Assembly (NCBI RefSeq): GCF_035285525.1
Contig: NZ_JAYKGW010000157.1
Location: 1-32,000, forward strand
Length of the DNA: 32,000 nt
Source: Okeania sp.
GTDB lineage: Bacteria > Cyanobacteriota > Cyanobacteriia > Cyanobacteriales > Microcoleaceae
Reading direction: 5' to 3'
Both the position numbers and the translations under genes were made by a program. Below are positions 1 to 30,924 of the stretch, piece by piece. Positions within the stretch are counted from its first letter, which is position 1. Each line of letters opens with the position of its first letter. The notes beneath the pieces were generated by a model, which saw nothing but the letters and a program-made list of their open reading frames with translations, made no database searches and had not been told where the DNA came from.

Positions 1-1548
1 GCAGTAACAATAACTCGTAGCAACGGTAGTGATGGAGCAGTCAGCGTTACACTCACCCCCAGCAATGGTACAGCAACAGCACCTGAAGATTATGATCATA
101 CTTCTATAGTGGTTAACTTTGCAGATGAGGAAACAGAAAAAAACGTGAATATTCCCATCGTCGATGATAGTGAAACAGAGGGAAATGAAACTATTAATTT
201 AGCTTTATCAAACCCCACAGGAGGAGCCACTATTGGTACTCAAGATACAGCAGTCTTAACAATTGTAGATAATGAAGTAATACTTGGTACCGAAGCAGGA
301 GAAATTTTAACAGGAGACGAACAGGATAACTATATTAATGGTTTTGGTGGCGATGATACTCTCAATGGTTCTGGGGGAGATGATAATTTATTTGGGGGTT
401 CTGGCAACAATATCTATGATGGCGATGATGGTAATGATACAGTCAGTTATGCCAACAACCAAACCAGTGGAGTTATTGCTAACCTCGAAACTGGCAATGT
501 CTCTCGTAAGTTTGAAACTTGGTCTGAAGATTTTAAAATTCTGCCTCTAGGTGACTCCAACACCAGTGGATACAGTAAATCTAGTCCCGGTGGGTATCGC
601 ATCAACCTATGGAGGTCTTTAGATGGTGCTGGGTACAATTTAGATTTTGTTGGTACAGCCTACAATGGTCCTTCTGATATTGATAGAGATCATGAAGGTC
701 GCGGTGCTTTCACTATTAATCACCTTATAGATAACACTGTCACTCAATTTCAAGGTTACAATACACCATCAGTAGCAACATACACAACTATTGAAGATAC
801 CTTGGGCACTTATGACCCAGATATGGTGTTATTAATGGCAGGTACTAATGACATTAGGGAAGGTGATGATGTAGATACGGCGATCGCTGATTTAGAGGAA
901 CTTGTGGATAGGATTGTTATTGCTGCACCTGATACCCATGTATTGGTTGGCTCTATTCTGCCAAATACTGCAAATGCTACTCGTGAGGCTAAAACTATTG
1001 AGTTTAGTAGCCGTGTTGAAAGCGAAATTGTCCAACCCCAAGTAAATGCTGGTAACTATGTCAGTTTTGTAGATATCTTTAATGCTCCACTCATTCCCAG
1101 TGACTTTACCTCTGATGGTACCCACCTGACATCTGGTGGTTATGATAAGTTAGCAGAGGTTTGGGAAGATGCTATCATTAATACGGTTGTTGCCGAAGAC
1201 ACTCTAATAGATGTAGAAAACTTAATTGGTTCTGATGGTAATGACGAACTCACAGGGAACAATGTTGCCAATGAACTTACTGGTGGCGCTGGAAATGACA
1301 CCATTACTGGTGGCGGTGGAGATGATTTATTTATCTACAGTGAAGGAGATGGAACTGACCTGATTACAGACTTTGAACTTAGTAACGATTTATTTGGACT
1401 ATCTGGTGGTTTAACTTTCAGTAAATTAACAATTGAAGATGCAGGGGCAAACACTGAAGTTAAAGTTACCCTCACTGACGAAGTTTTAGCTGTACTTCCA
1501 GGAGTGGTCGCAAATGATATTACCTCTGCTCATTTCATAACTGTCTAA
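1..1548 (+). CDS. Secreted multidomain protein, 5'-partial: Calx-beta domain, RTX (hemolysin-type Ca-binding) repeats, SGNH/GDSL hydrolase domain, second RTX block
   Basis: Frame 1 is open from base 1 (AVTITRSNGSDGAVSVTLTPSNGTATAPEDYD...), so the gene starts upstream of the window. Calx-beta signature: NFADEETEKNVNIPIVDDSETEGNETINLALSNPTGGATIG. GGxGxD nonapeptides: GGDDTLNGSGGDDNLFGGSGNNIYDGDDGND and GGAGNDTITGGGGDDLFIY. SGNH block I is ILPLGDSNTSGY, with GTND mid-block and DGTHLT as the final D-x-x-H block. Confidence 0.85.
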   Translation, partial: AVTITRSNGSDGAVSVTLTPSNGTATAPEDYDHTSIVVNFADEETEKNVNIPIVDDSETEGNETINLALSNPTGGATIGTQDTAVLTIVDNEVILGTEAGEILTGDEQDNYINGFGGDDTLNGSGGDDNLFGGSGNNIYDGDDGNDTVSYANNQTSGVIANLETGNVSRKFETWSEDFKILPLGDSNTSGYSKSSPGGYRINLWRSLDGAGYNLDFVGTAYNGPSDIDRDHEGRGAFTINHLIDNTVTQFQGYNTPSVATYTTIEDTLGTYDPDMVLLMAGTNDIREGDDVDTAIADLEELVDRIVIAAPDTHVLVGSILPNTANATREAKTIEFSSRVESEIVQPQVNAGNYVSFVDIFNAPLIPSDFTSDGTHLTSGGYDKLAEVWEDAIINTVVAEDTLIDVENLIGSDGNDELTGNNVANELTGGAGNDTITGGGGDDLFIYSEGDGTDLITDFELSNDLFGLSGGLTFSKLTIEDAGANTEVKVTLTDEVLAVLPGVVANDITSAHFITV

Positions 1549-2688: not shown

Positions 2689-3390
2689 TTAGTCCGATTT
2701 CATTCGTTGAGAAATAACCTTTGCAGGCACTCCCACTGCAATAGAATAAGGGGGAATATCCTTAGTTACCACTGCCCCTGCTCCTATCACGCTACCTTTA
2801 CCTATTCTGACACCATCAACTACTCTAACTCCACTACCCAGCCAACAGTCATCTTCAATCACAATACCTTGATAAGAACGGCCTTGTTCCTTAATCTTGC
2901 GATTTGGGTCTGAATATATATGATTATTTGCATATATTCCTGTGTGAGAAGCAATTAGACAATCATTACCTATCACAATATTACGTCCAGAAAGACAAGT
3001 GTAAGGACCTATATTGGTGCGATCGCCTATAACTATTAAACCCTCATCATGGACTCTAATATCTACTCCTCGTTCTAATCTACTTTTATTACCTATTTTA
3101 ATCCAGCTATTTAAACCATCTGCAGCTATATTAGCCCCAGAGCGAATATAAACCCCACTGCCTATTTCTATCCAATAGGTACGGTTAAATTCCACATTGT
3201 GTTGAATTTGAATATTACTTCCCCAGTTAGCAAAAATTAGACTATACATAGAGCTTCGTAATTTCATTCCCAATGATAAGGGTATGCCACCGATTGTAGC
3301 TAAAACTACACGATATAGATTAGTTAGTTTAGCCTGAGAGTCTTTCTTGACAAACTCATCAAATTTGTATTGATCTTGAGTAATAGTCAT
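2689..3390 (-). CDS. Left-handed beta-helix (hexapeptide-repeat) O-acetyltransferase, WbbJ/WcaF-like, possibly HpsU-like
   Basis: 233 aa. Hexapeptide repeats throughout: IGNDCLIASHTGIYANNH, GIVIEDDCWLGSGVRVVDGVRIGKGSVIGAGAVVTKDIPPYSIAVGVPAKVI. Hydrophobic N-terminal segment. Lies in a glycosyltransferase neighbourhood. Confidence 0.85.
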   Translation of the reverse strand: MTITQDQYKFDEFVKKDSQAKLTNLYRVVLATIGGIPLSLGMKLRSSMYSLIFANWGSNIQIQHNVEFNRTYWIEIGSGVYIRSGANIAADGLNSWIKIGNKSRLERGVDIRVHDEGLIVIGDRTNIGPYTCLSGRNIVIGNDCLIASHTGIYANNHIYSDPNRKIKEQGRSYQGIVIEDDCWLGSGVRVVDGVRIGKGSVIGAGAVVTKDIPPYSIAVGVPAKVISQRMKSD

Positions 3391-3485: not shown

Positions 3486-4082
3486 CTATGTATATGTCTT
3501 ATATATAGCAATCCTAAATTCATCAATTATAAACACTGTCAGATTTTCAGCTTGTATTTCCGGTTCCCATCTGGCTAATAATTCCTCTATATCTTTTCTC
3601 TTATTCGAGGGATGGAGAGGTATCCTTGCCATCCCTCGACCAGTTCTTTGAGCTTTCACTAATTCATCATTTTTAGGGGGATTATTGTTCTGAGTTTTTT
3701 TCCAACTTATTCCTGCTTCTTTAAGTAAATTATAATAACTTTGAGCCGACTCAAAAACTACATCATATTCATTCTGTAAATAGTTTTGTAAATCTGATAA
3801 TTTCAAATAATATTTTGCCCTTAACCACTCAATTGTTTCCTGTTTTTCTTGCGCATTTAAGAAACCTTTTCTGTCTTGATACTCAAGTCTTAAACTTTCT
3901 ACACCATGAAATAGTGCTTGGTGTTTCCATTGACTAATAAAACTATAAGAAACATTTAATAATTCTTTGATTTCATGGTAGGATTTTCCTAACAAAATCA
4001 TTTTTACTGCCAAGGCTCTTTTAACTTCTTTAGACTCTCTTGTTTGATTGATAAAATCATCTAATTCATCTATAATATTCAT
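3486..4082 (-). pseudogene. IS630-family transposase remnant: N-terminal HTH/winged-helix part only, DDE domain mostly missing
   Basis: Typical IS630 N-terminus (KRALAVKMILLGKSYHEIKELLNVSYSFISQWK ... GISWKKTQ). The ORF stops just after FIIDEF, the position of the first catalytic D. Only about 95 bp remain before the next gene. A 10-bp perfect hairpin (3606-3615 / 3629-3638) sits inside the ORF. Confidence 0.7.
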
Positions 4083-4383: not shown

Positions 4384-5607
4384 TTAAGGTTTCCAAATAC
4401 TTGCCTTTTGTTTTTGCTTCTTTAATCCTGGTAATAGATTATAAATTGTATTTTTGATAGGATACCAAAATAGTTTTAATCTTGCTTCCAGACGGTTGCG
4501 CCATAAACAAAACTTCAAAGCATTTACCCAAGAAGCAGAAATGCCTGCCTTTTCTGCTTCTTGAAGTATTGATCTAAATTCATTAGCCTGTGTTTGATCG
4601 AGATTTCTTAAACTTGATATATGAGCATCACTAACATCTTGCTCAAAACTTTCTGGTAGTGGAACTCCTACAACTCGCAAGTTTAAAATTGTGCGAACAC
4701 ACTTTTCGCAACGTCCACAGTTCAAACGATCAAAATTCTTTTGATTTTGAGGACCATACCAACATACCCGTAGTCTAGATAAAGCTTCAGGCCACTCAGA
4801 CAACATGGCCATTTTCTGAGTACGTGTAAAATCTGCACTATCGTGAATAATCTCAAAAGCATCACTGGAAACTAAAGGATCTGTTAATGGATTTGTTCCC
4901 CAAGGTATTACCAGTGATTGGTAAGGTTCTGTACTAGAAATTAATCCGGCTCTATATGTTCCCTGAAATAACATTAAACAGGAACCAGTCATACCAGCAA
5001 AAGCATCTTGTCCTAAACTTAAAGCCTTGAAATTTGTCGCCATCGTTATTAATTCTACCCCCAGACTCTCAAGAATTGCTTCTGAGTTTTGATAAGCGCG
5101 TTCAAATACTTCTTTTTGTTTCAGAGGAATATCAACACCATGAATCATCAATCCTGCTTTCAAATTTCGACTTAATCTACCACAGCGATTAGCAGCATGA
5201 CGAAAAGCAGTAAAACAAGCATCAACTCCACCGGAAAAAGCCATAATATCTCCAGCAGCATCATCTGCTCTTTGCTGTTCTATTTCTTTATCTGCAATGA
5301 CATCAATTTTTTTAAAGGATTTAGGTCGCCAGCAGGCCCATATTATTTGTAACTTTTCCAGGTTGCGTAATAAAGAAGGAGAAATTTCACCATGAACGTG
5401 CAAATCTGCTCCTCTTTTCATTCCCCAAAAAATGCTTCCTACAACCAGTGGATCCCAACTTTTAGTAATTTTAGAACTATGTTCTGCGGGTACACGATAC
5501 CATAAAGGAATTTTTGATTGTTTGGAGTCTTCTATAATAGCAGTTATAGTAACTGAACCATCTGCTTCGGTTTTTTCTTCTCTCCAGATATGAGCTAGAT
5601 TTTTCAT
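4384..5607 (-). CDS. PP-loop (adenine-nucleotide alpha-hydrolase superfamily) ATPase with a QueC-like C-terminal Cys motif and an unrecognised N-terminal domain
   Basis: 407 aa. PP-loop variant IMAFSGGVDACF (SGGxD-A instead of SGGxD-S/T). C-terminal NCGRCEKCVRT resembles the CGxCxxCxxR zinc motif of QueC-type enzymes. The first ~115 aa match nothing I recognise. Confidence 0.65.
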   Translation of the reverse strand: MKNLAHIWREEKTEADGSVTITAIIEDSKQSKIPLWYRVPAEHSSKITKSWDPLVVGSIFWGMKRGADLHVHGEISPSLLRNLEKLQIIWACWRPKSFKKIDVIADKEIEQQRADDAAGDIMAFSGGVDACFTAFRHAANRCGRLSRNLKAGLMIHGVDIPLKQKEVFERAYQNSEAILESLGVELITMATNFKALSLGQDAFAGMTGSCLMLFQGTYRAGLISSTEPYQSLVIPWGTNPLTDPLVSSDAFEIIHDSADFTRTQKMAMLSEWPEALSRLRVCWYGPQNQKNFDRLNCGRCEKCVRTILNLRVVGVPLPESFEQDVSDAHISSLRNLDQTQANEFRSILQEAEKAGISASWVNALKFCLWRNRLEARLKLFWYPIKNTIYNLLPGLKKQKQKASIWKP

Positions 5608-5716: not shown

Positions 5717-6508
5717 TTAGTATAAACCAAAATCTTTTCTAATTGATAATGTTATCGGACGATAATTGAATAAGACTTTTTTGATTTTAGGCAATAACCC
5801 TTTAGGATTAATTAAATTTTCTTTTCTTAATACATTTTCATTATGGCAAACAATATAAACACTACCAGGAAAAGGCAAAGGTGATATTGGTGTCTCTCGA
5901 TTAGCCAACAACTCCACTGCTTTGCTATGAGGAATATAGTACCTATTGTAGTAATCCAAATTATTAGATTCTAGAGTCTCAGGTAATGGATATAAGTCAC
6001 GTCTCAAAATAATTGATGTTCCACACCAACGATCAAAATTTTGCCTTTTAATATAGAGATATTTACTACCTTCTTTATATAAATAGCCTTTGTTGACAAA
6101 CCAACCATTATTTTGAGGACTTTGTTCAACCAACTGTGCTAGATGTTTGCTAACACAATCATCTGCATCGACAACCATTATATGAGTAAAACTATAATTT
6201 TCTTGAGCATATTTTATCCCAGTTAGTACCTTCCTAACCTTATCTGTTCGCTTTCTTATCAGTAAATTTACTTGATCTTGACTAGAAACTTGGGGAAATT
6301 CTACTCTCACATAATCAACATAAGGATGTATATATTGATTATTGGGCAATTCGTGACACACTACTACTACCCTAAAAGAATTAGAACTTTGATTACAAAC
6401 AGACTTAATAGTTCTTTCAAAAAGTCTAGATACAGTTTCCCATGACTTAGAAGTCTGCTGGCTCTTCAAAGGTATGACAAATAAAAGCATTTTTAAACTA
6501 TTACCCAC
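5717..6508 (-). CDS. Probable GT-A fold glycosyltransferase (GT2-like)
   Basis: 263 aa. Begins with a Rossmann-like strand (LLFVIPLKS...). DxD-type motif MVVDADDCV. Operon-like position among sugar-modifying genes. The start could instead be the Met at 6490 (MLLFVIPL). Confidence 0.55.
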   Translation of the reverse strand: MGNSLKMLLFVIPLKSQQTSKSWETVSRLFERTIKSVCNQSSNSFRVVVVCHELPNNQYIHPYVDYVRVEFPQVSSQDQVNLLIRKRTDKVRKVLTGIKYAQENYSFTHIMVVDADDCVSKHLAQLVEQSPQNNGWFVNKGYLYKEGSKYLYIKRQNFDRWCGTSIILRRDLYPLPETLESNNLDYYNRYYIPHSKAVELLANRETPISPLPFPGSVYIVCHNENVLRKENLINPKGLLPKIKKVLFNYRPITLSIRKDFGLY

Positions 6509-8491: not shown

Positions 8492-9451
8492 TTAGCTAGT
8501 TTTATTTACAGCAATACTCTTCATAAACTGTTTTTTAATCAACTCAAAAGGACTGAGCATACTACTCAAGAAAAATTCTAGTTCACAGGCCGCTACTAAA
8601 TCAGTTTGAAGATTCTGTCTGTATTTATAAATGTGTAAGATAGCTCGGCGTAGACTTCCCATAACTATCTTAGTCATTACAATTGGCTTTTGCCAACTTT
8701 TGATATTAATCAAACGTAGTTCACAAATACAAAGACCTACAGTTCTAGATAAAGAAAGTAGATAATCTCTTTCTAATCTCCAGCTTGGTATTTTATGATC
8801 TAGGTGCATATCTGGATTATACCAAATTTCCCAGCCTCCCCTGTGTAAGTGGAGAGATATTTCAAAATCATTTCCTCCTCTTGTCGTTCTAACTAGGCGC
8901 TGAGGAACATTTTCTAACCAAGCCTTTTTCCTAACAACTAATCCTGCTCCTGGAGGTAAACTTAAATTTTCTGGATTGTATAAATGAGCTTTTGAACCCC
9001 GCTCTTTAATTGCTAAAAATGATTTAATTCTCCCAAAATTTTCAGGAGGTTCTACTTCAAAATCACCATGAATTTGACCGCCATAAGCTCCTGCTTTAGG
9101 ATATTCTTGAGCAAATTTATATGCCATAGATACCCAGTCTGGGGCTGGAAAAACATCGTCATCTATGAAACCGATTAATTCTCCTTTTGCTGCTTCGATA
9201 GCCTTCTGTCTAGCAAAAGCTAATCCTTGTTCGGCTTCAAAACAATATCTTAAATTATAAGACTGCGACCAATTTTTTTGGTAATCTTGAACTACTTTTG
9301 CTGTATTATCTTTGCTGTTATTATCAACAACCAGAATTTCCCAATCAAAATGTTCAGTGTTAATTTGCTCTCGCAATTTATCCAGAACTTTTGGTAAACG
9401 TTTTTCCCCATTATAGGTAGGGATCGCTACCGTGAACTTTATCTGTTTCAT
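8492..9451 (-). CDS. hpsE: Family-2 glycosyltransferase, HpsE-like (hormogonium polysaccharide type)
   Basis: 319 aa. FTVAIPTYNGEKRLPKVLDKLREQI...ILVVDNNSKDNTAKVV, then FIDDDVFPAPDW (DxD). The N-terminal region is a close paralog of the first ~330 aa of the next gene. The symbol is a family-level assignment only. Confidence 0.8.
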   Translation of the reverse strand: MKQIKFTVAIPTYNGEKRLPKVLDKLREQINTEHFDWEILVVDNNSKDNTAKVVQDYQKNWSQSYNLRYCFEAEQGLAFARQKAIEAAKGELIGFIDDDVFPAPDWVSMAYKFAQEYPKAGAYGGQIHGDFEVEPPENFGRIKSFLAIKERGSKAHLYNPENLSLPPGAGLVVRKKAWLENVPQRLVRTTRGGNDFEISLHLHRGGWEIWYNPDMHLDHKIPSWRLERDYLLSLSRTVGLCICELRLINIKSWQKPIVMTKIVMGSLRRAILHIYKYRQNLQTDLVAACELEFFLSSMLSPFELIKKQFMKSIAVNKTS

Positions 9452-9887: not shown

Positions 9888-11714
9888 TTAGGTAAATCTC
9901 AAAGGTTTAGGAGAATCTATAGCATAGCCTTGAGCATAATGCAATCCTTGGGTAATAATATTATCCATTATCTTGCTGTTTTCAACCGCTTCCGCAATCG
10001 TTTTAATACCTAATTTATCACCCAGACTATGGATTTTTTCTATGCTGATGAGATTTCTACTGTTGTTAATAACTCCTTGAATTAATTTGCTATCAATTTT
10101 CAGATAATCTATAGGTAGTTGTTTGATATGCTCAGACATGGAGCTAAGATAGCCATCATTATCTGAGGTAAGATGACCAGCATTATCTAAGGTAAACTGA
10201 CAACCAATTTCTTTCAGCATCTTCATCAGTTTTGCTACTTTTTCTTTATTATAAATAGCAATACTTTCACTGATTCCTAAACTAATTATTTCTGGTGAAA
10301 TTTCATGCTTATCAAACTGCTGACGCAAGAAATCTACGAATGTTTCATCATTGACACTAGCAGCACTAATGTTAATCTCATACAAACATCTATTGTCTTG
10401 AACTTTAGCCCCAGAAAGTTGACTCAACAACTTCCAAATTACCCATTTATCAATGATTCCCATAAAATTGTAACGTTCAGCAGTAGGTATAAACTTTCCA
10501 GGTAATATAATCTTCCCTTTTCTGTCTTCTATTCGCAGCAGAATTTCTAAATGTCTTCTGTTTAAATCTTGGTTGCTAATAGGAGATATGCTTTGACCAT
10601 AAAGACAAAAGTTTTGTTCTTTAAAAGAAAAGTTTTGTTCTCCACAACAACAGTTTTGTTCTTCAATAGCTGTAGCAATAATCTCTAACCAATTTTCACT
10701 GCCATCAAGTCGTCGGTAACTTCTGGCTTGAGCTTGAGACTCTTGTTGTTTAGCCCACAGGAAAAAAGGACTTTTGATTGTATTCCACAAAAATTCTGTT
10801 TGGCAAGCTGTCACAGTATCAGTTTTGATTAACTTACCTTTTTTCATCCTGTGAAGTACCAATTGTCGCCAATCATTAGCCATGTATGCTGGAAAAGCTA
10901 AAGGTTTTTGCCAACTTTTGAGAGTCATCATTCTCATACGATTTCGACTCAAACCTACACAACGAACTACCTTGAGTAAGTAATCTTTTTTCAGTCGCCA
11001 ATTAGGAATTTTATGATGAACCACCATTGCTGGGTTGTACCAAATTTCCCAACCTGCTTGCTGAATATGTCTTAAAGCTTCTAAATCTTCACTAGCTAAT
11101 CCAGCCTCTTTATCAGTATGATTCAAAAATAATGTCTTGGGAACTGCTTTTTCCCAGGCTTGTTTACGAACTACTACTCCAGCACCAGGGGGTAACATCT
11201 TATTTTTAGGCTTGTATAAACTTGGTTTATTACCTCGATTTATAATTCCTAAAAAACAAGCTATCTCTTTAAAGTTTTCTGGCAATTCTGATTCTGAATT
11301 TTGTTCAAAAAAGTATCCATGAATCTGACTGCCAAAAGCACCAACTTGAGGATGATTTTTCCCAAAACTATAAGCTTGGGATACCCATTCAGGAGCAGGT
11401 AAATTGTCATCATCTAGGAAACCAATAAATTCTCCTCTGGCTTTTTCCACTGCTCTTTCTCTAGCAAATGCCGCTCCTTGCTTTGCTGCAAAAGCATATC
11501 TTAATGGAATTAATTTAGGCCAGTCAGTCTTTTGATGATTTGCATAATCTCCTACTACTTCCGCAGTTTTATCCGTGCTGTTATTATCAACTACGATTAC
11601 TTCCCATGAGAAGTTCTCGGTATCTATTTGTGATTTTAATTTGTCTAATACATCTGGTAGACGAGCTTCCCCATTGTAGGTAGGGATAGCAACTGTGAAA
11701 TCAACCCTGTTCAT
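9888..11714 (-). CDS. Fusion protein: HpsE-like GT2 glycosyltransferase (N-terminal) plus EAL domain (C-terminal, apparently degenerate)
   Basis: 608 aa. N-terminus: FTVAIPTYNGEARLPDVLDKLKSQI...VIVVDNNSTDKTAEVV, FLDDDNLPAPEW. C-terminus carries EAL-domain blocks: LEILLR, PGKFIPTAERYNFMGIIDKWV, EINIS, LGISES, FTLDNAG, YLKIDSKLI, IAEAVEN, AQGYAI. Confidence 0.85.
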   Translation of the reverse strand: MNRVDFTVAIPTYNGEARLPDVLDKLKSQIDTENFSWEVIVVDNNSTDKTAEVVGDYANHQKTDWPKLIPLRYAFAAKQGAAFARERAVEKARGEFIGFLDDDNLPAPEWVSQAYSFGKNHPQVGAFGSQIHGYFFEQNSESELPENFKEIACFLGIINRGNKPSLYKPKNKMLPPGAGVVVRKQAWEKAVPKTLFLNHTDKEAGLASEDLEALRHIQQAGWEIWYNPAMVVHHKIPNWRLKKDYLLKVVRCVGLSRNRMRMMTLKSWQKPLAFPAYMANDWRQLVLHRMKKGKLIKTDTVTACQTEFLWNTIKSPFFLWAKQQESQAQARSYRRLDGSENWLEIIATAIEEQNCCCGEQNFSFKEQNFCLYGQSISPISNQDLNRRHLEILLRIEDRKGKIILPGKFIPTAERYNFMGIIDKWVIWKLLSQLSGAKVQDNRCLYEINISAASVNDETFVDFLRQQFDKHEISPEIISLGISESIAIYNKEKVAKLMKMLKEIGCQFTLDNAGHLTSDNDGYLSSMSEHIKQLPIDYLKIDSKLIQGVINNSRNLISIEKIHSLGDKLGIKTIAEAVENSKIMDNIITQGLHYAQGYAIDSPKPLRFT

Positions 11715-11893
11715 ATTGAACGCACCTCAACTAAAGTTTTTGCAATGTTTCTACATGGTGCTTTTGTTGCTTGATTTTCGCTGGCCTTGAAGGCGATCGC
11801 GAAATACAAACAATCAGGATACTCTACAGTCTGAGTTTAAGTGCTTAAGCAAAATTAGCAGATTCCAGGTACATTAAGTACAGATATTCAGAT

Positions 11894-11997
11894 AGGACTA
11901 AAGCCATGGACGCTACTGGTAGGGTGTGTTTTGCTACGCGACATGAAAAGCCTACTTCGTAATGCACCAATATATATAGAGCCTTTGCGTAAGTCCT
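11894..11997. mobile_element. MITE family A-related element (same ends, different core)
   Basis: AGGACTAAAGCCATGGACGC...GCCTTTGCGTAAGTCCT. Sits about 180 bp upstream of the GT2-EAL start codon. Confidence 0.65.
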
Positions 11998-12672
11998 GTC
12001 AGAATTAAATCTAGTGCGGGCATCTTGCCCGCGACGGGTAGATATTGCCTGTGACAGGCGCTCCTCACGCTTAGTGGAATCCGCTATAATTGTGCATTGA
12101 TTTCTCAATTGGTCAGACTTAGAGACGAAATTATATACAAATAATTTTGCACAACTACTTATCCTGTAAATTCACCAAGTAGTTTGAATATTCTCTCTTC
12201 GGTTAAGTAGAATTACTGATCGTTTAATTGAGATGCACCCGAGCTATTGGCGTTTATAGCAATTTTTTCAAAGATTCTGACTAACTCTATAACTCATCAA
12301 AAAAGACATAATACAGCAACTGAGGCTAAGTTCTAAACAGAGTTAATCAGGAGTAAACAGAAGAGAAAAAGTGAGTAATCTATAGATTATTCAATAATGT
12401 TCTAATTTTTTAGACCTGATTTACTATTAACTAATCCAAAACTTTAAGACTGTACTATATTTTTGTAAGATTTTTTATTAGTCGGATATGAAATCAATAT
12501 ACACCCTTTTATGAAGAATTGGTGAAAATTTCCCAGAGATTTATAAATTTTCAGTAAAAACACTTAAGATTAAAATTAACCAGCTCAAAGCCTTGACAAA
12601 CTAATTTTAAAGTGGTAAAAAATCAGCAAATTTAATCCTTTTATGATTATTCTCAAAATATGTTGGCCATTT

Positions 12673-12692
12673 CAGTTATCAGTTATCAGTTA
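12673..12692. repeat. STRR-like heptamer (CAGTTAT), about 3 units
   Basis: CAGTTATCAGTTATCAGTTA read directly. The same heptamer recurs at 12981-13006, 15144-15163 (reverse complement) and 22303-22320 (reverse complement). Confidence 0.9.
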
Positions 12693-12980
12693 GGGTTTGC
12701 TGATTAAATATAAAAGCTTTTACTGGTAAAGGTTTTAGCCTTTTTAAGTCTGGAAAAAGTTCAACTTTTTAAGGATGAGGAAATGATGTATACTAACGCT
12801 ATTTTTTATTTATTGATATCGTCACTCCTGTCTCCTGAATCTTGACTCCTGTCTCCTAGTCCTCACTTTTGCAAAGACACGGTTAGGGGTTATATAACCC
12901 ATATTCGGCAGTTCAAGTTGTAGTATTAAAATTATGCAACTTACAGCGCTTTTCTTTCCTGATAAACCACATCGTCATTT

Positions 12981-13006
12981 CAGTTATCAGTTATCAGTTA
13001 TCAGTA
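12981..13006. repeat. STRR-like heptamer (CAGTTAT), about 3.7 units
   Basis: CAGTTATCAGTTATCAGTTATCAGTA read directly. Confidence 0.9.
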
Positions 13007-13179
13007 GAGAGTGAACCTCCGACTAAACTTGGAGGCTGGAAATACTGAGTTAAAATTTTTTCATCCCCGAACCAGGGGAGGCTTTATACCTCTTTTTTTG
13101 GTCATAACCAAAACTCCAGGGGCGAATGGGATTCGCCTTCATTGTTGTATGCAATGTCCGTACATATAAAAATGTCAAT

Positions 13180-13275: not shown

Positions 13276-13334
13276 AATTGTTATGATGTTTTATATAGGT
13301 TTTATGGCAGTGTCAAATATAGTTGAATAAAATT

Positions 13335-14519
13335 ATGCGAATCTTACAAATAATACCTTCTATTTCTCTAGTTTACGGCGGTCCTAGTCAAATGGTTTCA
13401 GGACTTTCTACCGCTCTTGCTGCCCAAAATATAGATGTTACTATTCTTACCACAGATTCTAATGGGGATATTGGTCAACCGCCTTTAGATGTTCCCCTAG
13501 ATAAACCTGTCACACAAAATGGTTATCAAATTCGTTATTTTCGTTGTTCTCCGTTTCGTCGTTATAAATTTTCTCTACAATTATTACAATGGTTAAATCA
13601 ACACGCTAATGAATTTGATTTAGCTCATATTCATGCTCTTTTTTCTCCAGTAACTACTATAGCTGCAACTGTTGCTAGAACTAATAATTTACCCTATATT
13701 TTAAGACCTTTAGGAACTTTAGATCCTGCTGATTTACGCAAGAAAAAACAACTGAAAAAAATTTATGTTTCTCTGTTAGAAAAGCGGAATATTGCTCATG
13801 CTGCTGCTTTGCATTTTACCAGTACCCAAGAGGCAAAAATTTCTGAAAGATTTGGTTTATCTACAAAAGATTTAGTAATTCCTTTAGGTGTTAATCCTCC
13901 CAAAAATATTCCAGAGGAAAGTTTAGTTAATTTTCTTCAATCTCAAGGTATAGAAACTAAATATCCGATAATTTTATTTATGTCTCGCATTGAACCAAAA
14001 AAAGGATTAGATTTATTATTACCTGCTTTAGAAAAGTTATTGACTGAAGGGATAAATTTTCAATTTATTTTAGCAGGTGCTAACCCTCAAGACCCTAATT
14101 ATGAGGAAAAAATTAGGTCAAAAATACAAAATTCACCTCTGGCTAAATTTACAAAAATAACAGGTTTTGTTACAGGAGAAATAAAAGCAAGTTTATTGCA
14201 AGTTTCTGACTTATTTGTATTGCCTTCTTATTATGAAAATTTTGGTATTGCCGTAGCAGAAGCAATGGTAGCAGGCACCCCAGTCCTTATTTCTGACCAA
14301 GTTCACATTTGTCAAGATGTCGCAAATGCAAAAGCAGGTTGGGTTGGTGCTTGTCAAATAGAAGATATGGTTACTTTAATTAAGTCAGCTTTGCAGGATG
14401 AAACCGAAAGAAAACAACGAGGTTTGAATGCTAAAAAATTAGCTGAAAATAGTTATAGTTGGCAGGCGATCGCTACACAAACTATTCAAGCTTATGAAAA
14501 AATTATTGCTGATAAATAG
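13335..14519 (+). CDS. GT-B fold family-4 glycosyltransferase (Glycos_transf_1 type)
   Basis: MRILQIIPSISLVYGGPSQ N-terminus. E-x7-E motif in PSYYENFGIAVAEAMVAGTPVLIS. The ORF track begins at TTG 13323; ATG 13335 is the more plausible start. Confidence 0.85.
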   Translation: MRILQIIPSISLVYGGPSQMVSGLSTALAAQNIDVTILTTDSNGDIGQPPLDVPLDKPVTQNGYQIRYFRCSPFRRYKFSLQLLQWLNQHANEFDLAHIHALFSPVTTIAATVARTNNLPYILRPLGTLDPADLRKKKQLKKIYVSLLEKRNIAHAAALHFTSTQEAKISERFGLSTKDLVIPLGVNPPKNIPEESLVNFLQSQGIETKYPIILFMSRIEPKKGLDLLLPALEKLLTEGINFQFILAGANPQDPNYEEKIRSKIQNSPLAKFTKITGFVTGEIKASLLQVSDLFVLPSYYENFGIAVAEAMVAGTPVLISDQVHICQDVANAKAGWVGACQIEDMVTLIKSALQDETERKQRGLNAKKLAENSYSWQAIATQTIQAYEKIIADK

Positions 14520-15469: not shown

Positions 15470-17950
15470 TTATCCATTATCAAAAGGCAATTTTGGTGGT
15501 GGTGGAGGAACTACCAAGCACTCAACAACTGCTTTATGACTTTCGCGGTCAGTTTGGACTTCTGCCGCGATCGCCTCAAACCTAATTTCCAAACAACCAT
15601 AAGCAATATCTAAGTCTGTAATTACTTCTACTTCTCCCATTCCATTTGGGATAAAATCAGTTAACCAGCGAGGTCCAGCTACTATTGCTTGAGCTTGGCG
15701 ATCATAAACCCATATTTTAACATAAATCCGAGGTAAACCTTCTGGTAATTTCACCCTTACTTTTACTGCTCGTCCGGCAACAATATCTTTGGCCATCAAT
15801 TCTAAATTAGGAACTGGCAATGGTTGTTCATCTGATAAAATATAAGGTTTTGTCGAAATAGACTCATCTTTTTGTTGAGAAAGATTATCTAAACCAAAGT
15901 CCCATTGGTTCTCTTGGCCTGGCCAGATTTCTTCTGGTTGTTCATCTTCGACCACAAATTCTTCTGCTTCCCAATTAATTTCATCATTATCCTCACTAGC
16001 AAATTCTTCATCATCAACCATTACACTAATAGAATCATTATCCTGTAATTCTTCTGTTTTATCTAATTCTGTATTACCCTTGTCCGTTTTCTCAGTTGGT
16101 TCCACAGAAGAAATCTTCATCCATTGCAATAACTCAGAATCGTTAATCAAGGAATTTAAACGAGAAAAGAATCTATCTTCCAAGTTCAAAGCTTTAAATT
16201 CGTGATTTATAGGAGTAAAGTTTGTGGGAAAGGGTACAAGATTTTGTTTAGTTTCAAGTGTTGCTTCTTTATTAAAAGTTTCTGACTTTGACTCTACTTC
16301 TGATTGTAAATTTGTCTCTTCTTCAGACGGTTCTGAATCTCTCCAAACATCATCCATTTCATCAGAATCTTTAGTATAATTTGACTTAGCCAAATCATTA
16401 ATTTTAGTTGGATTTTTCGCCCTATTACTATTATCCGGTAGTGAATTTCCAAATGTTGGTAATTTTAATATTTCAGAATTTGACTTACCTGTAATAGGTT
16501 TGTTTATTTGTGGTGGTAAAGGTTTTTCTCTATCTGTTTTCTGCTCTGGTTGAGTCTGATTAATTTTTTTGACTAAATCCTGAAAAGAATTATGTTTTTC
16601 TTCTGGCTTTCTTGCTATTAAATTTGTTTTCGGATCAACTATTTCCTGATATTCATCTTCCCAAAAATTATCATCAATTACAGCTAGTAAGTTTTCAACT
16701 GAAGCGGTAATTGTAAAAGATTGATTTGCTAAAACATTATTATTATTTTTGAGGATAATTTCTCCTAATATTAGACGAGTTTTCATATTTTCTGGCACAT
16801 TAATTATACAGGCAAAGAAAATAGGTAAAGCTTGCTCTGGTAAAATTTGTTCTACTTCTATTAAAATTTCTGAAGTTTGAGGATTACGCAAACAAATATT
16901 TAAGTTCCCATTGATTATGGGAGTATTATTCGTTGCAAGAGCATAATTTTTTTCTGTTAAATTATCCTGGGCAAGTAGATTGTTAAAGCCTTCATTAGAT
17001 TGAATATTCTCATCTTGATTATCAATAATTATTTGTCCAGATATAGTTAATGCTTCTCCTGGTTGAGCAATATAAGATAATCTATCTAAAATTAGTTCTA
17101 GAGATAAATTTAGAATAGAGTTAGCTTGAGTATTAGTATTTGTTTCTTGATTTTCTTCTACTTTTATATCTGGCTCTTTCTGCAGTTCCTCCAATATTGA
17201 TGAGCTATTGTTCAGGGTTTCAGTTAGTTCTCTTAGTTGACTCTCTATATTTTTAATTTCTTCGTTTTGATTTTGAATGTTTGGTGTTTGCTGTTTATAA
17301 CTATCTAGTAAATCAGTCAGATTTTCTATACTTTCTGATTCTTCTGATAATGCTTGTAATTTCTCTTGAATCTGACTGTCTAATAATTCTATTTCATCTG
17401 ATTTAATTGTCTCAAGTTTTGGCAACTCAGGATAGTTTTTTCCTATATTTTCTTCTTGATTAATTGTTACTTCATTTTGACCTGAAAAAAACGAAATATT
17501 TTCATTAGTTATCAAATTCTTTAGCTCAGGTTCAGTATCTTTTACTTTATATAATTCTTGACTTTGTGGTTCTAGTTGTTGTGAAAAATCTGAACTATCC
17601 CAGTCATTAGACAATACTTCTAGATAGACAATATGTTCTCTTGTTTCTATTGATGATGTGGTTGGTTTAGCTAAACAGCGAAACTCCCACTTACCTGGTT
17701 TGAGTCTGGTAAATGGAATAATAGATATGAGACCTTGAGAGCGAGTACGACTAGAACGTTTATGAACTCGCCTTATGGGAGGGATTTCTTCATTAGAATT
17801 ATGAATAATCTGAATTTGGACTTCTGTATTAGCTATATGAGTATTCGCAACTATCCGATAGCGACCCTCTAGAATTTCCACATCGGCTAATTCTAAGGGT
17901 AGCCAGGTTTGGTCTCCCTCTTTCTGTAGCAAAAATTCCCAGTCTGACAT
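15470..17950 (-). CDS. Large acidic low-complexity protein of unknown function; apparently ordered N- and C-terminal domains flank an E/N/Q/S-rich centre
   Basis: 826-aa uninterrupted ORF in AT-rich DNA. Ordered-looking N-terminus (MSDWEFLLQKEGDQTWLPLELADVEILEGRYRIVANTH...KPGKWEFRCL) and C-terminus (VKVRVKLPEGLPRIYVKIWVYDRQAQAIVAGPRWLTDFIPNGMGEVEV...). No motif recognised. Confidence 0.75.
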   Translation of the reverse strand: MSDWEFLLQKEGDQTWLPLELADVEILEGRYRIVANTHIANTEVQIQIIHNSNEEIPPIRRVHKRSSRTRSQGLISIIPFTRLKPGKWEFRCLAKPTTSSIETREHIVYLEVLSNDWDSSDFSQQLEPQSQELYKVKDTEPELKNLITNENISFFSGQNEVTINQEENIGKNYPELPKLETIKSDEIELLDSQIQEKLQALSEESESIENLTDLLDSYKQQTPNIQNQNEEIKNIESQLRELTETLNNSSSILEELQKEPDIKVEENQETNTNTQANSILNLSLELILDRLSYIAQPGEALTISGQIIIDNQDENIQSNEGFNNLLAQDNLTEKNYALATNNTPIINGNLNICLRNPQTSEILIEVEQILPEQALPIFFACIINVPENMKTRLILGEIILKNNNNVLANQSFTITASVENLLAVIDDNFWEDEYQEIVDPKTNLIARKPEEKHNSFQDLVKKINQTQPEQKTDREKPLPPQINKPITGKSNSEILKLPTFGNSLPDNSNRAKNPTKINDLAKSNYTKDSDEMDDVWRDSEPSEEETNLQSEVESKSETFNKEATLETKQNLVPFPTNFTPINHEFKALNLEDRFFSRLNSLINDSELLQWMKISSVEPTEKTDKGNTELDKTEELQDNDSISVMVDDEEFASEDNDEINWEAEEFVVEDEQPEEIWPGQENQWDFGLDNLSQQKDESISTKPYILSDEQPLPVPNLELMAKDIVAGRAVKVRVKLPEGLPRIYVKIWVYDRQAQAIVAGPRWLTDFIPNGMGEVEVITDLDIAYGCLEIRFEAIAAEVQTDRESHKAVVECLVVPPPPPKLPFDNG

Positions 17951-20851: not shown

Positions 20852-21307
20852 ATGCCACCAAAAGCTCGTTTGAAAAACTATCTGACTACAGAAGAATTGA
20901 AAATTCGCTATCGACAAGCTCCAGATACCATCGAATCCCGTCGATGGCATCTCCTGCTTTTAATTGCTCAACAATGGTCTATTAAAAAGGCAGCTCAAGT
21001 TATTGGGCTTAATTATGATTATGCCAAGGAAATTGTTGGACGTTATAACCGAGAAGGACCGGAGTCTGTGAAAAATCGTAGCAAGGATCGTCAACCACCT
21101 CCTGCTAAATCTTTATTGACTTTTGCTCAACAGCAGGAACTATTAATGGCTTTACAAGGGCCTGCTCCTGATGGTGGGACTTGGTCTGGTCCAAAAGTAG
21201 CTCGTTGGATAGCTGATAAAACTGGTCGGGATCATGTCTGGCCTCAACGAGGTTGGGATTATCTAAAAAGGTTGGGTATTGACTGGAAGAAAAAAGATCA
21301 CAAGTAA
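20852..21307 (+). pseudogene. Orphan IS630-family orfA-like HTH ORF with no DDE partner downstream
   Basis: 151 aa. HTH region SIKKAAQVIGLNYDYAKEIVGRYNREG and second winged-helix region WSGPKVARWIADKTGRDHVWPQRGWDYLKRLGIDWKKK. Ends next to an A6G run (21290-21296) like the IS630 frameshift site. Downstream DNA is non-coding repeats. Confidence 0.6.
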
Positions 21308-26821: not shown

Positions 26822-28303
26822 ATGTTATTTAACTCTTATGTTTTTATATTTGGTTTTTTACCTTTAACTTTGATTATATTTTTTGCTTTAACTAAGTTTC
26901 GCTTAATTAAAGCAGCTAAGGTTTGGTTGACTGCTAGTTCTTTCGCTTTTTATGGTTATTGGAATGTTGCCTATGTTCCTCTACTGATAATTTCAATTTT
27001 ATGGAATTATCAAATGGGTAAATTTATTGCTGAAGCTAAACCAGAAAGTAAGAAAGTAAATGTTTTACTTTGGTTAGGTATAGCTGTAAATTTAGTAATA
27101 ATTTCCTATTATAAATATGCCAACTTTTTCTTAGATAGTTTTAATTCAGTAGTTTCTACAAATTTCAATGCTGGGGAAATTATTTTACCTCTGGCAATTT
27201 CTTTTTATACTTTTACTCAAATAGCTTATTTAGTAGATGCTTATCGTGGAGAAACTAGAGAAACTAATTATGATTTACTCACTTATAGTTTATTTGTAGT
27301 TTTCTTCCCTCAATTAATCGCCGGACCTATTTTACGTCACGATGAACTTATTCCGCAATTTCGTCAATTGCGTAATTATGTTTTTTCCCAGAAAAATATG
27401 GCTTTGGGTTTGAGTCTTTTTAGTTTAGGATTGTGTAAAAAAGTATTGATAGCTGATACTATATCACCTTGGGTAACACTAGCATTTAATAATACTTCTG
27501 ATTTGAGTTTTATTGAAGCCTGGGTAGGGGCTTTAAGTTACACTTTTCAACTATATTTTGATTTTTCTGGTTACTCAGATATGGCAATAGGTTTAGGGTT
27601 AATGTTTAATATTAAATTACCCATTAATTTTAACTCTCCCTACAAAGCTACTTCTATTAGTGATTTTTGGCGACGCTGGCATATTACTTTATCAAATTTT
27701 CTGAGAGATTATCTATATATTTCCCTGGGTGGAAGTCGTCGCGGAGAAGTTCGTCGTTATACTAATCTTTTAACAACAATGCTATTAGGTGGATTATGGC
27801 ATGGTGCTGGTTGGACTTATGTAATTTGGGGAGGTTTACATGGTATCTATTTATGTATTAATCATGGTTGGCGAAAGTTAAATATTCCGATGCCAAAATT
27901 ATTAGCATGGGCAATTACTTTTATTTCTGTTATTATTAGTTGGGTGTTATTTCGAGCCGAAAATATTCAAGATGGTTTAGATATTTTACAAACAATGACC
28001 GGTTTTAATGGAATAGCTATACCAGGAGAAGCTAAAGGGAAATTATCTATATTAACTAATTTTGGTTTTCAGGTTAAATCTTGGTCGGAATTAACTTATT
28101 TGCCAGAACTTTGGGGTAGTAAAACTTTCTCAATATTGACTTTAATAGCTTTAACTTTTTCTGTAAGTTTTCTACCAAATACTCAGGAAATTTTAGCAAA
28201 GCTAAAACCTACTTGGTGGTGGGCAGCTTGGATTGGTATTTTGACAAGTTTAGCTTTATTATCACTGAACCGTGTGTCTGAGTTTCTTTATTTCCAATTT
28301 TAA
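26822..28303 (+). CDS. MBOAT-family membrane-bound O-acyltransferase (AlgI/DltB-like)
   Basis: 493 aa, polytopic. Conserved blocks DFWRRWHITLSNFLRDYLYISLGGSRRG and LGGLWHGAGWTYVIWGGLHG (catalytic His region). Confidence 0.92.
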   Translation: MLFNSYVFIFGFLPLTLIIFFALTKFRLIKAAKVWLTASSFAFYGYWNVAYVPLLIISILWNYQMGKFIAEAKPESKKVNVLLWLGIAVNLVIISYYKYANFFLDSFNSVVSTNFNAGEIILPLAISFYTFTQIAYLVDAYRGETRETNYDLLTYSLFVVFFPQLIAGPILRHDELIPQFRQLRNYVFSQKNMALGLSLFSLGLCKKVLIADTISPWVTLAFNNTSDLSFIEAWVGALSYTFQLYFDFSGYSDMAIGLGLMFNIKLPINFNSPYKATSISDFWRRWHITLSNFLRDYLYISLGGSRRGEVRRYTNLLTTMLLGGLWHGAGWTYVIWGGLHGIYLCINHGWRKLNIPMPKLLAWAITFISVIISWVLFRAENIQDGLDILQTMTGFNGIAIPGEAKGKLSILTNFGFQVKSWSELTYLPELWGSKTFSILTLIALTFSVSFLPNTQEILAKLKPTWWWAAWIGILTSLALLSLNRVSEFLYFQF

Positions 28304-29700: not shown

Positions 29701-30924
29701 ATGAATATCAATAACAAACATTATCCTAACTATTCCCTAGTTTCATATTCCCAAAAATCAAAAAAATATCGTAGATTTAATTGGATATTTTTACTGTCGG
29801 TATTTTTCCCTGTAATTACAGTAGGAATATTAAATATTATTGTCAATCCTTATGATGTATTTAATACTCCTAATTTCATCGGAATAAATCATTCAAAACC
29901 TCGGAAAGATAATAATGATCGCCTCTTTAAAGCAACTGATATTATCCGAATTAAACCTGTTACAGTTTTTCTAGGTTCCTCCAGAGCAAAACGCGCTCTA
30001 GACCCAAATCATCCTGCTTTAGAAAATCATCATCCAGCTTATAACTTAAGCATTGATAACCCCAATATTTATGAATTACGACGCTATTTAGAACACGCGA
30101 TCACTAATCAGGAAAAATTAGGTTTAGTGATTATCGGATTAGATTTTTTTACGTTTAATTCATTTCAGGAAAATCAAGTGAATTTTTCTGAAAATAGATT
30201 AGAAAAACAGCATATTTCTGCCAAAGATTTTATTAATATCACCTTTTCTCTAGATGCATTGTTGGCAAGTAAAGAAACAATAATTGATAGTCGTAAAACT
30301 CCAGCAAATAACCTTGGTTACGGAGAAAATGGATTTATGCCTGAGTTAAATGTTGACCCTGAAAAAACTCAGCAGAGATTTAACCAACTTATCAGTTACT
30401 ATGTAAAACATCGATATGCCAGATATCAATTATCTGCTCAATTTTTAGATGAATTAAAAACAATAGTAGATTTATCTGAAAAAAATCAAATTAAGTTAAT
30501 ATTATTTATTTCTCCTTCTCATGCGACTCACTGGGAAGCAATGAAAAGGAAAGATAAATGGTTAATTTTTGAAGAATGGAAACGTGAAGTTGTAAAAATT
30601 ACCCCTGTATTTGATTTTTCTGGATACAACAGTATCACAACTGAACCTATTCATAATAATATGGAAAATTATACAGAAAATTCTCATTATACTCCCAAAG
30701 TAGGGAATTTAATTCTTAACCGAATTCTCTCTTACAAAGAAGAAGAAGTTCCAGAGGATTTTGGAATTTTAATTAATTCAAAAAATCTTGAATCTCATCT
30801 AGAAAAAATTCGTCAAGACCGAGAAGTTTGGGTGAAAAATAATCCTGATGAAGTGAACTTGGTAATAGAAATTAAACAGAAATATGATAGGTCACTGACA
30901 GATAAAAATGAGATGGCAAATTGA
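29701..30924 (+). CDS. Putative MBOAT partner protein: N-terminal membrane anchor plus extracytoplasmic DltD/AlgJ/SGNH-like domain (function inferred)
   Basis: 407 aa. TM anchor WIFLLSVFFPVITVGILNIIV. Candidate Ser block VFLGSSRAKRAL. Later blocks FISPSHATHW and ENSHYTPKVGNLI. Sits in the canonical position downstream of an MBOAT gene. Confidence 0.7.
   Translation: MNINNKHYPNYSLVSYSQKSKKYRRFNWIFLLSVFFPVITVGILNIIVNPYDVFNTPNFIGINHSKPRKDNNDRLFKATDIIRIKPVTVFLGSSRAKRALDPNHPALENHHPAYNLSIDNPNIYELRRYLEHAITNQEKLGLVIIGLDFFTFNSFQENQVNFSENRLEKQHISAKDFINITFSLDALLASKETIIDSRKTPANNLGYGENGFMPELNVDPEKTQQRFNQLISYYVKHRYARYQLSAQFLDELKTIVDLSEKNQIKLILFISPSHATHWEAMKRKDKWLIFEEWKREVVKITPVFDFSGYNSITTEPIHNNMENYTENSHYTPKVGNLILNRILSYKEEEVPEDFGILINSKNLESHLEKIRQDREVWVKNNPDEVNLVIEIKQKYDRSLTDKNEMAN

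Follow-up and report, generated by a model that had tools for sequence, protein, structure and literature searches.

PP-loop enzymes activate a carboxyl or carbonyl group by adenylating its oxygen, after which the activated carbon goes to a nucleophile. Nitrogen is that nucleophile in the QueC branch, supplied by ammonia (QueC) or by a protein alpha-amine (Cap9); a carboxylate is what QueC, Cap9 and probably QatC adenylate before the transfer to nitrogen (PMC13329287, PMC13279940, PMC13376578). QatC belongs to the QueC family; its N-terminal alpha/beta extension is followed by a QueC core with SGGxDS and four Zn-site cysteines and by a basic helical extension at the C-terminus, and the literature leaves its reaction unresolved (PMC13279940, PMC13376578, PMC13329287). 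Here we analyse a 32,000-nucleotide stretch of an Okeania sp. contig (NZ_JAYKGW010000157.1; hereafter the window) and, in particular, one gene in it that encodes a protein of 407 residues (hereafter the target). An earlier note, made from the sequence alone, had described the target as a QueC-like PP-loop ATPase within a glycosyltransferase cluster. Judged by its predicted fold and two hallmark motifs, the target is a PP-loop enzyme of the QueC/QatC branch. It lies outside every curated family and its N-terminal domain is unrecognised. The novelty lies in a very large family without annotation, whose N-terminal domain is new and whose conserved enzymatic partnership is new as well.

QatC resembles the family in size (about 400-460 residues), in the same three-part layout, in its SGGxDS and C(x)nCxxCxxC motifs and in its basic C-terminal helices, and both do without the canonical QueC motifs for binding of 7-carboxy-7-deazaguanine (CDG). 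The identity between QatC and the target is about 9%, however, and the QatC signature motifs are absent from the family. Further, QatC is encoded in the QatABCD anti-phage operon with qatA (ATPase), qatB and qatD (TatD nuclease), whereas members of the family adjoin polysaccharide genes.

In canonical QueC (7-cyano-7-deazaguanine synthase, PF06508 cluster 1), as in the family, an SGGxDS-type P-loop comes early in the core and a four-Cys motif closes it, and carboxylate adenylation followed by nitrogen attack is the general chemistry expected of both. The target exceeds QueC by about 110 residues at the N-terminus and about 80 at the C-terminus, and the queuosine-pathway context of QueC was not found around the family. 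The Zn motif of canonical QueC has the form C(x)8CxxCxxC (PMC13329287). Cap9 of the type IV cyclic-oligonucleotide-based anti-phage signalling system (CBASS) is an ATP-dependent carboxylate-amine ligase and shows that the QueC scaffold can form N-substituted amides as well as primary ones. Unlike the family, Cap9 is minimal (about 185 residues), has the canonical QueC motifs intact and acts on the N-terminus of a protein. The WbpG/WbuX/PseA-type enzymes (PF06508 cluster 5, subcluster 2) are like the family in having a PP-loop, a length of 300-400 residues and a place in polysaccharide or O-antigen loci. They modify sugars with nitrogen, and their Cys motif precedes the P-loop (PMC13329287). 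In the family the order is reversed, the Cys motif following the P-loop, and the partner gene is a pyruvyl transferase. The remark of the earlier note that the target differs in architecture from N-acetyl-sugar amidotransferases agrees with this published arrangement. A recent survey of the QueC superfamily took PF06508 members as its basis, and the present family is missing from it (PMC13329287).

Fold, hallmark motifs and size of the family

The translation of the target contains AFSGGVDA (residues 123-130) and NCGRCEKCVRT (residues 296-306), so the reading of a 407-residue open reading frame (ORF) with AFSGGVDA and CGRCEKCVRT was correct; its strand, which had gone unstated, is minus. The comparison of the C-terminal cysteines with the Zn site of QueC holds for the conserved CGRCEKC but had missed the fourth cysteine. 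This is the invariant C282, upstream of NCGRCEKC, which completes the QueC-type C(x)nCxxCxxC motif. Conservation spans the full length of the protein in an alignment of 30 homologues, where S125, G126, G127, D129, C282, N296, C297, C300, K302 and C303 are invariant. Addition of more distant members from other phyla (18-27% identity) leaves G127, D129, K265, C282, N296, C297, C300, K302 and C303 invariant, and the conservation of both motifs goes well past what chance would give. The C..CxxCxxC pattern is present in 261 of 268 family proteins, usually with the spacing C(x)9CxxCxxC, while the target has C(x)14CxxCxxC. In the P-loop, a minority of members naturally have SGGVDA in place of SGGVDS (31 versus 149 among the 268 proteins); the variant is phylogenetically scattered, and the two closest orthologues of the target (92% and 87% identity) have it in common.

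A model of the target built with AlphaFold2 from the homologue alignment is confident, with a predicted local distance difference test score (pLDDT) of 89.9 and a predicted template-modelling score (pTM) of 0.88. It consists of an N-terminal alpha/beta domain (residues ~1-112), a Rossmann-like core and C-terminal helices (327-403); a strand (120-123) leads to the P-loop and is followed by a helix (128-138). Foldseek comparison of the model with the PDB gave one significant neighbour, QatC in the QatB-QatC complex (9y02_B; E=7.9e-6, probability 1.0, 398 columns). All 10 sub-threshold profile matches in the PDB are PP-loop ATP pyrophosphatases (GMP synthase, MnmA, TilS), aligned exactly on SGGVDS. 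For a direct comparison of sequences, a QatC profile was assembled from the P. aeruginosa QatC sequence given in the source data of the paper and from collected homologues. Alignment of the family with this profile by hhalign reached 76.5% probability (E=2.2e-5; 45% with the single QatC sequence), centred on the PP-loop, and set the P-loop motif FSGGVDA of the target opposite FSGGMDS of QatC. At a relaxed threshold the alignment covered residues 62-351, and NCGRCEKC fell on HCGFCVPC of QatC, the site of Zn-binding C354/C357/C360; the same alignment places D52 of the family opposite the catalytic D63 of QatC, with negligible confidence. D63 lies in the N-terminal extension of QatC, which also carries the motifs D(x)4R(x)7WxR and DxWxxxF. 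The QueC-like PP-loop assignment is thus borne out by the sole significant structural neighbour, by hhalign and by the sub-threshold matches, although the curated QueC and QatC models are not passed. The profile searches, which the earlier note had proposed as a check, gave no confident match to a characterised family unrelated to sugar chemistry.

Several results weigh against a closer affiliation. The Foldseek match to QatC has a template-modelling (TM) score of 0.42 and a root-mean-square deviation of 9 A, and canonical QueC (3BL5) is outside the top 50 Foldseek matches of the target model, as is Cap9. When the domains were split, hhalign of core against core gave 48% with signal only at the P-loop region, and homology of the N-domain and C-domain to QatC was not demonstrable (N-domains, E=0.16). 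The sequence link to QueC and QatC rests almost wholly on the P-loop and the Zn motif.

Curated models give the same picture of a family standing apart. The gathering cut-off of PF06508 (QueC) is not reached: the target has no match, and 9 of 27 members match weakly (best E=0.008, at most 16 bits versus 22) over about 30 residues comprising the Zn motif only (profile positions 165-201). The cut-off of DUF6395 (PF19932; 25 bits) is not reached either. Here 19 of the 27 members match weakly, with a best E of 8e-5, over about 30 residues on the Cys motif only, and the score is at most 17 bits among 10 members scanned individually. By inspection of the alignments, the family lacks the catalytic and substrate motifs of canonical QueC (YxQxHxxE, VPxRN and YPDC), and its equivalent regions read HGFDIPL, ATNFR and SSxPY. 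The QatC models gave no PADLOC match in 30 members and no NCBIfam match. For the target itself, nothing reached threshold in scans with the Pfam, NCBIfam and PADLOC models or in a phmmer search of PDB sequences, and NCBIfam contains no match of any kind at E<=0.1.

The N-terminal domain is conserved in its own right, with W8, E26, W36, Y37, D52, G73, SPSLL(76-80), N82, L83, W90, W93, E108 and E110 as invariants. The first ~115 residues had been called unrecognisable, and this is still the case: there is no Pfam or NCBIfam match, and a separate model of the domain (pLDDT 92.4) has no PDB match at E<=1e-3 by Foldseek, QatC not being recovered. An RNase H-like topology was considered for this domain, but the Foldseek matches to such folds were insignificant and we claim no fold. 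At the other end of the protein, the C-terminal tail averages a net charge of +8.9, as against -6.2 for the protein body, and sequence prediction found no transmembrane segment in the target family protein. Because of this combination, we suggest a cytoplasmic enzyme that would dock on the membrane or on a polyanion.

The family is large. A search of a 90%-clustered database returned 831 homologues at E<=1e-3, nearly all of ~400 residues and all labelled "hypothetical protein". An exhaustive profile search over 1.84 billion representatives returned 8,541 clusters (50% identity) at E<=1e-3 and 2,653 at E<=1e-30. Members occur in Cyanobacteria, Pseudomonadota, Desulfobacterota, Chloroflexota, Acidobacteriota, Actinomycetota, Verrucomicrobiota, Bacteroidota, Bacillota and haloarchaea; the closest named relative of the target in the homologue search is a Microcoleaceae metagenome-assembled genome. 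The family is among the larger enzyme families still known as "hypothetical protein" only and has no curated model; its fold class and its partner gene now make it annotatable.

Partnership with polysaccharide pyruvyl transferases

We collected 101 non-redundant loci from more than 10 phyla by exact-protein look-ups, a genome scan and a metagenome scan. The genome scan supplied at least 16 loci (Desulfobacterota, Chloroflexota, Acidobacteriota, Actinomycetota, Verrucomicrobiota, Bacteroidota, Gammaproteobacteria, Bacillota), with no cyanobacteria among the matches listed. Neighbours were classified by jackhmmer from Pfam-annotated seeds and spot-checked with Pfam, and genes within 300 nt were taken as adjacent.

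In more than 10 phyla the family is embedded among polysaccharide genes, and its dominant partner is the polysaccharide pyruvyl transferase (PS_pyruv_trans, PF04230). This gene is present in 47/101 loci, a share that amounts to 28/43 (65%) among loci with at least 8 kb of flank and 17/24 (71%) among those with at least 15 kb. It is adjacent in 27 loci, on the same strand as the family gene in 26 of the 27, downstream in 20 and upstream in 7. Seed-based detection undercounts divergent pyruvyl transferases, as in L047 and L057. The other recurrent neighbours, given with the same three denominators, are GT2 glycosyltransferases (28/101; 21/43, 49%; 15/24, 62%; adjacent in 2), Wzt (27/101; 19/43, 44%; 10/24, 42%; adjacent in 7) and AsnB-like proteins (23/101; 13/43, 30%; 8/24, 33%; adjacent in 14). 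In three loci (L004, L010, L011) and in the P0087 contigs the family gene comes directly after wzm-wzt.

The partnership extends to gene fusions. Two family members are fused to a pyruvyl transferase domain, which is C-terminal in both (P0127, P0139). Three are fused to an O-methyltransferase (P0087, P0130, P0173), one to the nucleotide-binding domain of Wzt, which precedes it (P0178), one to a thioesterase (P0252, 771 residues) and one to a second copy of the family domain (P0122). Genome annotations in RefSeq support the pairing independently with two clean arrangements. On plasmid p3 of Azospirillum brasilense Sp7, a gene annotated as a polysaccharide pyruvyl transferase and a family gene stand together as a cassette of two, with unrelated genes around them; the pair is AMK58_RS27450 and RS27455, and the family protein is WP_035682648.1. 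Gloeothece verrucosa PCC 7822 has the series GT1-GT4-GT-pyruvyl transferase-family, in which the last two genes are CYAN7822_RS29240 and RS29245. In the full-text literature we found no paper that links PP-loop or QueC-like enzymes with pyruvyl transferases.

Tandem paralogues (at least two copies) are found in 16/101 loci. Together with the family-family fusion, they may mean that the enzyme works as a (hetero)oligomer or that the paralogues have diversified in specificity. The metagenomic locus L039 (7571-14042) carries five tandem copies after a 707-residue spermine-synthase-like/methyltransferase-domain protein. Esterase-type neighbours also occur apart from the thioesterase fusion, namely a PHB-depolymerase-like esterase (L097, 11205-12443) and a SASA/sialate-O-acetylesterase-like gene (L025, 11382-12311). 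In L047 (6279-8360) and L057 (11238-13327) a target-family gene is followed by a gene of a NeuB-family nonulosonic-acid synthase and then by a divergent pyruvyl transferase gene; L057 has, in addition, a radical-SAM enzyme and a UDP-GlcNAc 2-epimerase-like gene upstream. The proximity of NeuB offers another carboxylate-bearing sugar as a possible substrate.

The earlier note had tentatively proposed an amide, amidine or thio modification of a sugar, to be abandoned should linkage with glycosyltransferase genes be lacking elsewhere. In the neighbourhood comparison the linkage is conserved in the relatives, the gene order HpsE / alkaline-phosphatase family / target recurring at 92% and 61% identity, and its interpretation therefore survives on this point.

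Proposed reaction and competing explanations

The fold class, the motifs with their conservation, the size of the family and its linkages and fusions are results of the analysis; adenylation by means of ATP, the choice of carboxylate, the amide and a part in capping are inferred. We suggest the following mechanism. The SGGxD(S/A) loop would bind ATP-Mg and the four-Cys site would hold a structural Zn. The enzyme would then adenylate a carboxylate on a cytoplasmic lipid-linked or nascent polysaccharide. A pyruvyl transferase adds exactly one new functional group to a glycan, a carboxylate, and in most lineages the acceptor would probably be the 1-carboxyethylidene group (pyruvate ketal) installed by the adjacent enzyme. 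A nitrogen nucleophile, either ammonia (possibly from the AsnB-like neighbour) or an amine, would displace AMP and leave an amide. The basic C-terminal tail might tether the enzyme to the membrane or to the anionic glycan. For the clade of the window, the hormogonium polysaccharide could offer a different sugar acid as acceptor, or the pyruvate could be added by the product of a gene located elsewhere.

That the family is an active adenylating enzyme of polysaccharide modification is, in our estimate, probable (about 0.8). Within this frame, adenylation of the pyruvate-ketal carboxylate and its conversion to an amide is the most economical way of reading the adjacency together with the fusions and the two-gene cassette. 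The likely substrate, as far as gene context can tell, is narrowed to this carboxylate, which the earlier note did not list among its candidates. This specific model, amidation of the pyruvate ketal, we put forward tentatively, at somewhat less than even odds.

Some points have to be set against the ketal proposal. A pyruvate ketal cannot be the universal substrate, because no pyruvyl transferase was found within 10 kb in the window, in its two closest relatives and in ~30% of well-covered loci. The partner counts stand without a background frequency of pyruvyl transferases in polysaccharide loci; moreover, a motif pattern served to retrieve the loci, which were ranked by similarity, and ORFs were called naively, which matters most in high-GC contigs. 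AsnB-like enzymes carry an adenylation domain of their own, so their co-occurrence with the family need not mean ammonia supply. Finally, a review of pyruvylated glycans contains no amide-modified pyruvate ketal (PMC6801904).

Among the alternatives, the one closest to our proposal keeps the enzyme class and the glycan context and changes the chemistry or the acceptor: a uronic or nonulosonic acid would be amidated, or an N-acetyl group converted to acetamidino in the manner of WbpG/WbuX/PseA-type enzymes. The lack of a nearby pyruvyl transferase in the clade of the window speaks for this, as do the NeuB gene that directly adjoins the family gene in L047 and the UDP-glucose/GDP-mannose dehydrogenase and AsnB-like genes of several loci. 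WbpG-type enzymes, besides, belong to the same PF06508 superfamily (PMC13329287). We nevertheless regard this alternative as somewhat unlikely. The pyruvyl transferase is by far the commonest immediate neighbour and is even fused to the family; the motif order is opposite to that of WbpG-type enzymes; no NCBIfam model of N-acetyl sugar amidotransferases matches at E<=0.1; and a HisH/HisF-like pair that would supply ammonia was not seen in any locus examined. Departing further, the enzyme might be a protein ligase like QatC or Cap9, adenylating a small carboxylic acid and attaching it to the N-terminus of a partner in the polysaccharide machinery and leaving the glycan alone. QatC is indeed the closest structural neighbour, with the N-terminal extension, QueC core and basic C-terminal helices in common. 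In the literature its basic C-terminal patch binds the protein partner, and the tandem paralogues and family-family fusion would suit oligomeric assemblies. This reading is very unlikely to us, since qatA, qatB and qatD neighbours are missing in the window and in more than 100 loci, PADLOC matched none of the 30 members, no homologues were found in phage records, the QatC-specific motifs are absent, N-domain homology is not demonstrable and no queD/queE-type genes for CDG supply were seen in the loci. The PADLOC and phage results also led us to reject an association of the family with defence systems or phages. Modification of the N-terminus of the pyruvyl transferase itself was rejected too: in P0127 and P0139 its domain is C-terminal to the family domain, so the fused pyruvyl transferase offers no free N-terminus.

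Two further explanations are most improbable in our view. One is a QueC-style two-step reaction on the glycan (carboxylate to amide to nitrile) or a LarE-like formation of a thiocarboxylate. QueC is the paradigm of an ATP-dependent nitrile synthetase in this branch, the spacing of the Zn motif is near-identical (C(x)9CxxCxxC versus C(x)8CxxCxxC), and the AsnB-like amidotransferase adjacent in 14 loci could make an amide for dehydration. On the other hand, the family does not possess the three canonical QueC motifs, sulfur-relay genes were not seen in the loci, and we know of no bacterial polysaccharide that bears a nitrile or a thioacid. The other, equally remote from our expectation, is that the protein has kept the PP-loop fold but no catalysis and serves as a scaffold or chain-length regulator. 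This would account for the position after wzm-wzt, where WbdD-type terminators are found, for the long C-terminal helix with its basic tail and for the alanine that replaces the last P-loop serine in the target. This substitution is common in the family (31/268) and phylogenetically scattered, though, and the invariance across phyla of the P-loop residues, the four cysteines, K265, N296 and K302 is the pattern expected of an active enzyme.

We return to the proposed amidation of the pyruvate ketal and to what it would entail. WbdD-type kinase/methyltransferases are chain terminators in ABC-transporter-dependent O-antigen synthesis (E. coli O8/O9a). Like the family, they are encoded after wzm-wzt, combine an ATP-using domain with a methyltransferase (in some family members) and end in a helix with a basic tail. 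Their fold is unrelated, kinase versus PP-loop, and the likeness is one of functional analogy only. In ABC-transporter (Wzm/Wzt) loci the product of the family enzyme may form part of a cap at the non-reducing end, which is plausible there because of the Wzm/Wzt link, the Wzt fusion and the methyltransferase fusions; a capping role argued from WbdD is speculation. In its full form the idea would be that the family and the pyruvyl transferase install an undescribed glycan modification, an amidated (or further processed) pyruvate ketal, and that in Wzm/Wzt loci this serves as a cap that stops growth and licenses export. We consider it unlikely in this full form. If it holds, the family would be a widespread PP-loop counterpart of WbdD terminators and a glycan-directed sister of QatC.

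Pyruvate substituents control the charge of surface glycans, their binding by lectins and SLH domains, and their antigenicity. The pairing and fusion with pyruvyl transferases predict a specific, so far unreported processing of these substituents. Reuse of the QueC scaffold to modify proteins in anti-phage defence was demonstrated lately, and the present family would extend this scaffold into glycan chemistry. It is also a tractable relative of QatC, since clean cassettes exist in genetically tractable hosts (the p3 plasmid of Azospirillum brasilense Sp7, Gloeothece/Cyanothece PCC 7822).

The hormogonium-polysaccharide locus of the window

Features of the window (positions in the 32,000-nucleotide stretch)
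Feature	Position	Strand	Evidence
Secreted-type protein with Calx-beta, RTX calcium-binding repeats and GDSL esterase domain; runs off the window start	1-1548	+	
Hexapeptide-repeat (WbbJ/WcaF-like) sugar O-acetyltransferase	2689..3390	-	Pfam, NCBIfam scans
Transposase-like HTH ORF	3486..4082	-	Pfam HTH_33/HTH_23
Target gene, 407-residue QueC/QatC-like PP-loop family member; family never annotated	4384..5607	-	ORF, ATG start
Target: C-terminal helical extension with sequence-variable, strongly basic tail	4387..4632	-	DSSP helices 327-403, charge
Target: PP-loop (adenine-nucleotide alpha-hydrolase) core domain, residues ~117-325	4633..5259	-	Foldseek, PDB profile matches, hhalign
Target: four-Cys motif C282-x14-C297-x2-C300-x2-C303, predicted Zn site	4699..4764	-	Conservation, QatC/QueC alignment
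Target: PP-loop motif F124-S-G-G-V-D-A130, pyrophosphate-binding loop	5218..5238	-	Conservation, alignment with SGGVDS
Target: N-terminal alpha/beta domain, residues 1-112, conserved	5272..5607	-	Alignments, separate N-domain model
Upstream neighbour, 263 residues, weak GT-A (GT2)	5717..6508	-	Pfam E=3e-4, below cut-off
Alkaline-phosphatase-superfamily (Phosphodiest) protein, 553 residues	6707..8368	-	Pfam PF01663 E=3.5e-10
HpsE hormogonium-polysaccharide glycosyltransferase (GT2)	8492..9451	-	NCBIfam NF038302, 476 bits versus cut-off 300
HpsE-like GT2 fused to C-terminal EAL (cyclic di-GMP) domain	9888..11714	-	NCBIfam HpsE 448 bits; Pfam EAL E=5.6e-39
HpsP	13323-14519	+	NCBIfam, above cut-off
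826-residue ORF without Pfam or NCBIfam match, between TerB-like gene and amidase	15470-17950	-	
Second short transposase-like ORF, HTH domains only	20852-21307	+	Pfam HTH
MBOAT (DltB/AlgI-like) acyltransferase	26822-28303	+	
178-residue partial duplicate of the C-terminal half of the 407-residue MBOAT-associated protein, 80% identity	29018-29554	+	
407-residue protein without Pfam match, downstream of MBOAT	29701-30924	+	

With two HpsE genes and one HpsP gene above the NCBIfam cut-offs, the window is, by sequence, a hormogonium-polysaccharide locus of a filamentous cyanobacterium. Every gene from 11714 down to 2689 is on the minus strand. The acetyltransferase, the weak GT-A gene and the alkaline-phosphatase-family gene are present as the earlier note had described; what it had left out is the transposase-like ORF that separates the target from the acetyltransferase. 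In both transposase-like ORFs of the window the only domains are of the HTH type (HTH_23/28/32/33). No Hps model of NCBIfam matches the target, which is syntenic with HpsE and HpsE-EAL in three taxa.

The block HpsE-EAL / HpsE / alkaline-phosphatase family / (variable gene) / target / ... / acetyltransferase recurs in the relative L024 (92% identity), and HpsE-EAL / HpsE / alkaline-phosphatase family / target recurs, rearranged, in L026 (61% identity), the hexapeptide acetyltransferase of that relative being on its other contig, L025. In a further locus (L006) a family gene lies ~3 kb from a 1,589-residue gene and a pseudopilin gene, which are HpsA/HpsB-like in position. The HpsE-EAL fusion is kept in both L024 and L026. 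It suggests a direct control of a hormogonium-polysaccharide glycosyltransferase by cyclic di-GMP, with EAL as phosphodiesterase or receptor.

The surroundings of the target are less stable. In L024 the target is followed by a gene for a 547-residue polytopic membrane protein (11371-13014), at the place where the window has its first transposase-like ORF; the membrane-protein gene appears to have been lost or replaced in the genome of the window. On the upstream side, the neighbouring gene differs between loci that are ~90% identical at the DNA level: opposite the GT-A gene of the window, L024 (8624-9430) has an unrelated 268-residue protein and a 61-residue remnant matching the 3' end of that 263-residue gene. 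This slot is a mosaic hot-spot in the locus. The Calx-beta/RTX/GDSL gene at the start of the window also borders the locus in L024.

A second ORF of 407 residues in the window, downstream of MBOAT, was considered as a paralogue of the target and rejected; the two have no similarity, and the ORF belongs to an MBOAT-associated family. Homologues of it adjoin MBOAT in L024 and L025 as well, the pair in L025 lying immediately upstream of a target-family gene. From this arrangement, MBOAT and the 407-residue protein probably form an O-acylation pair.

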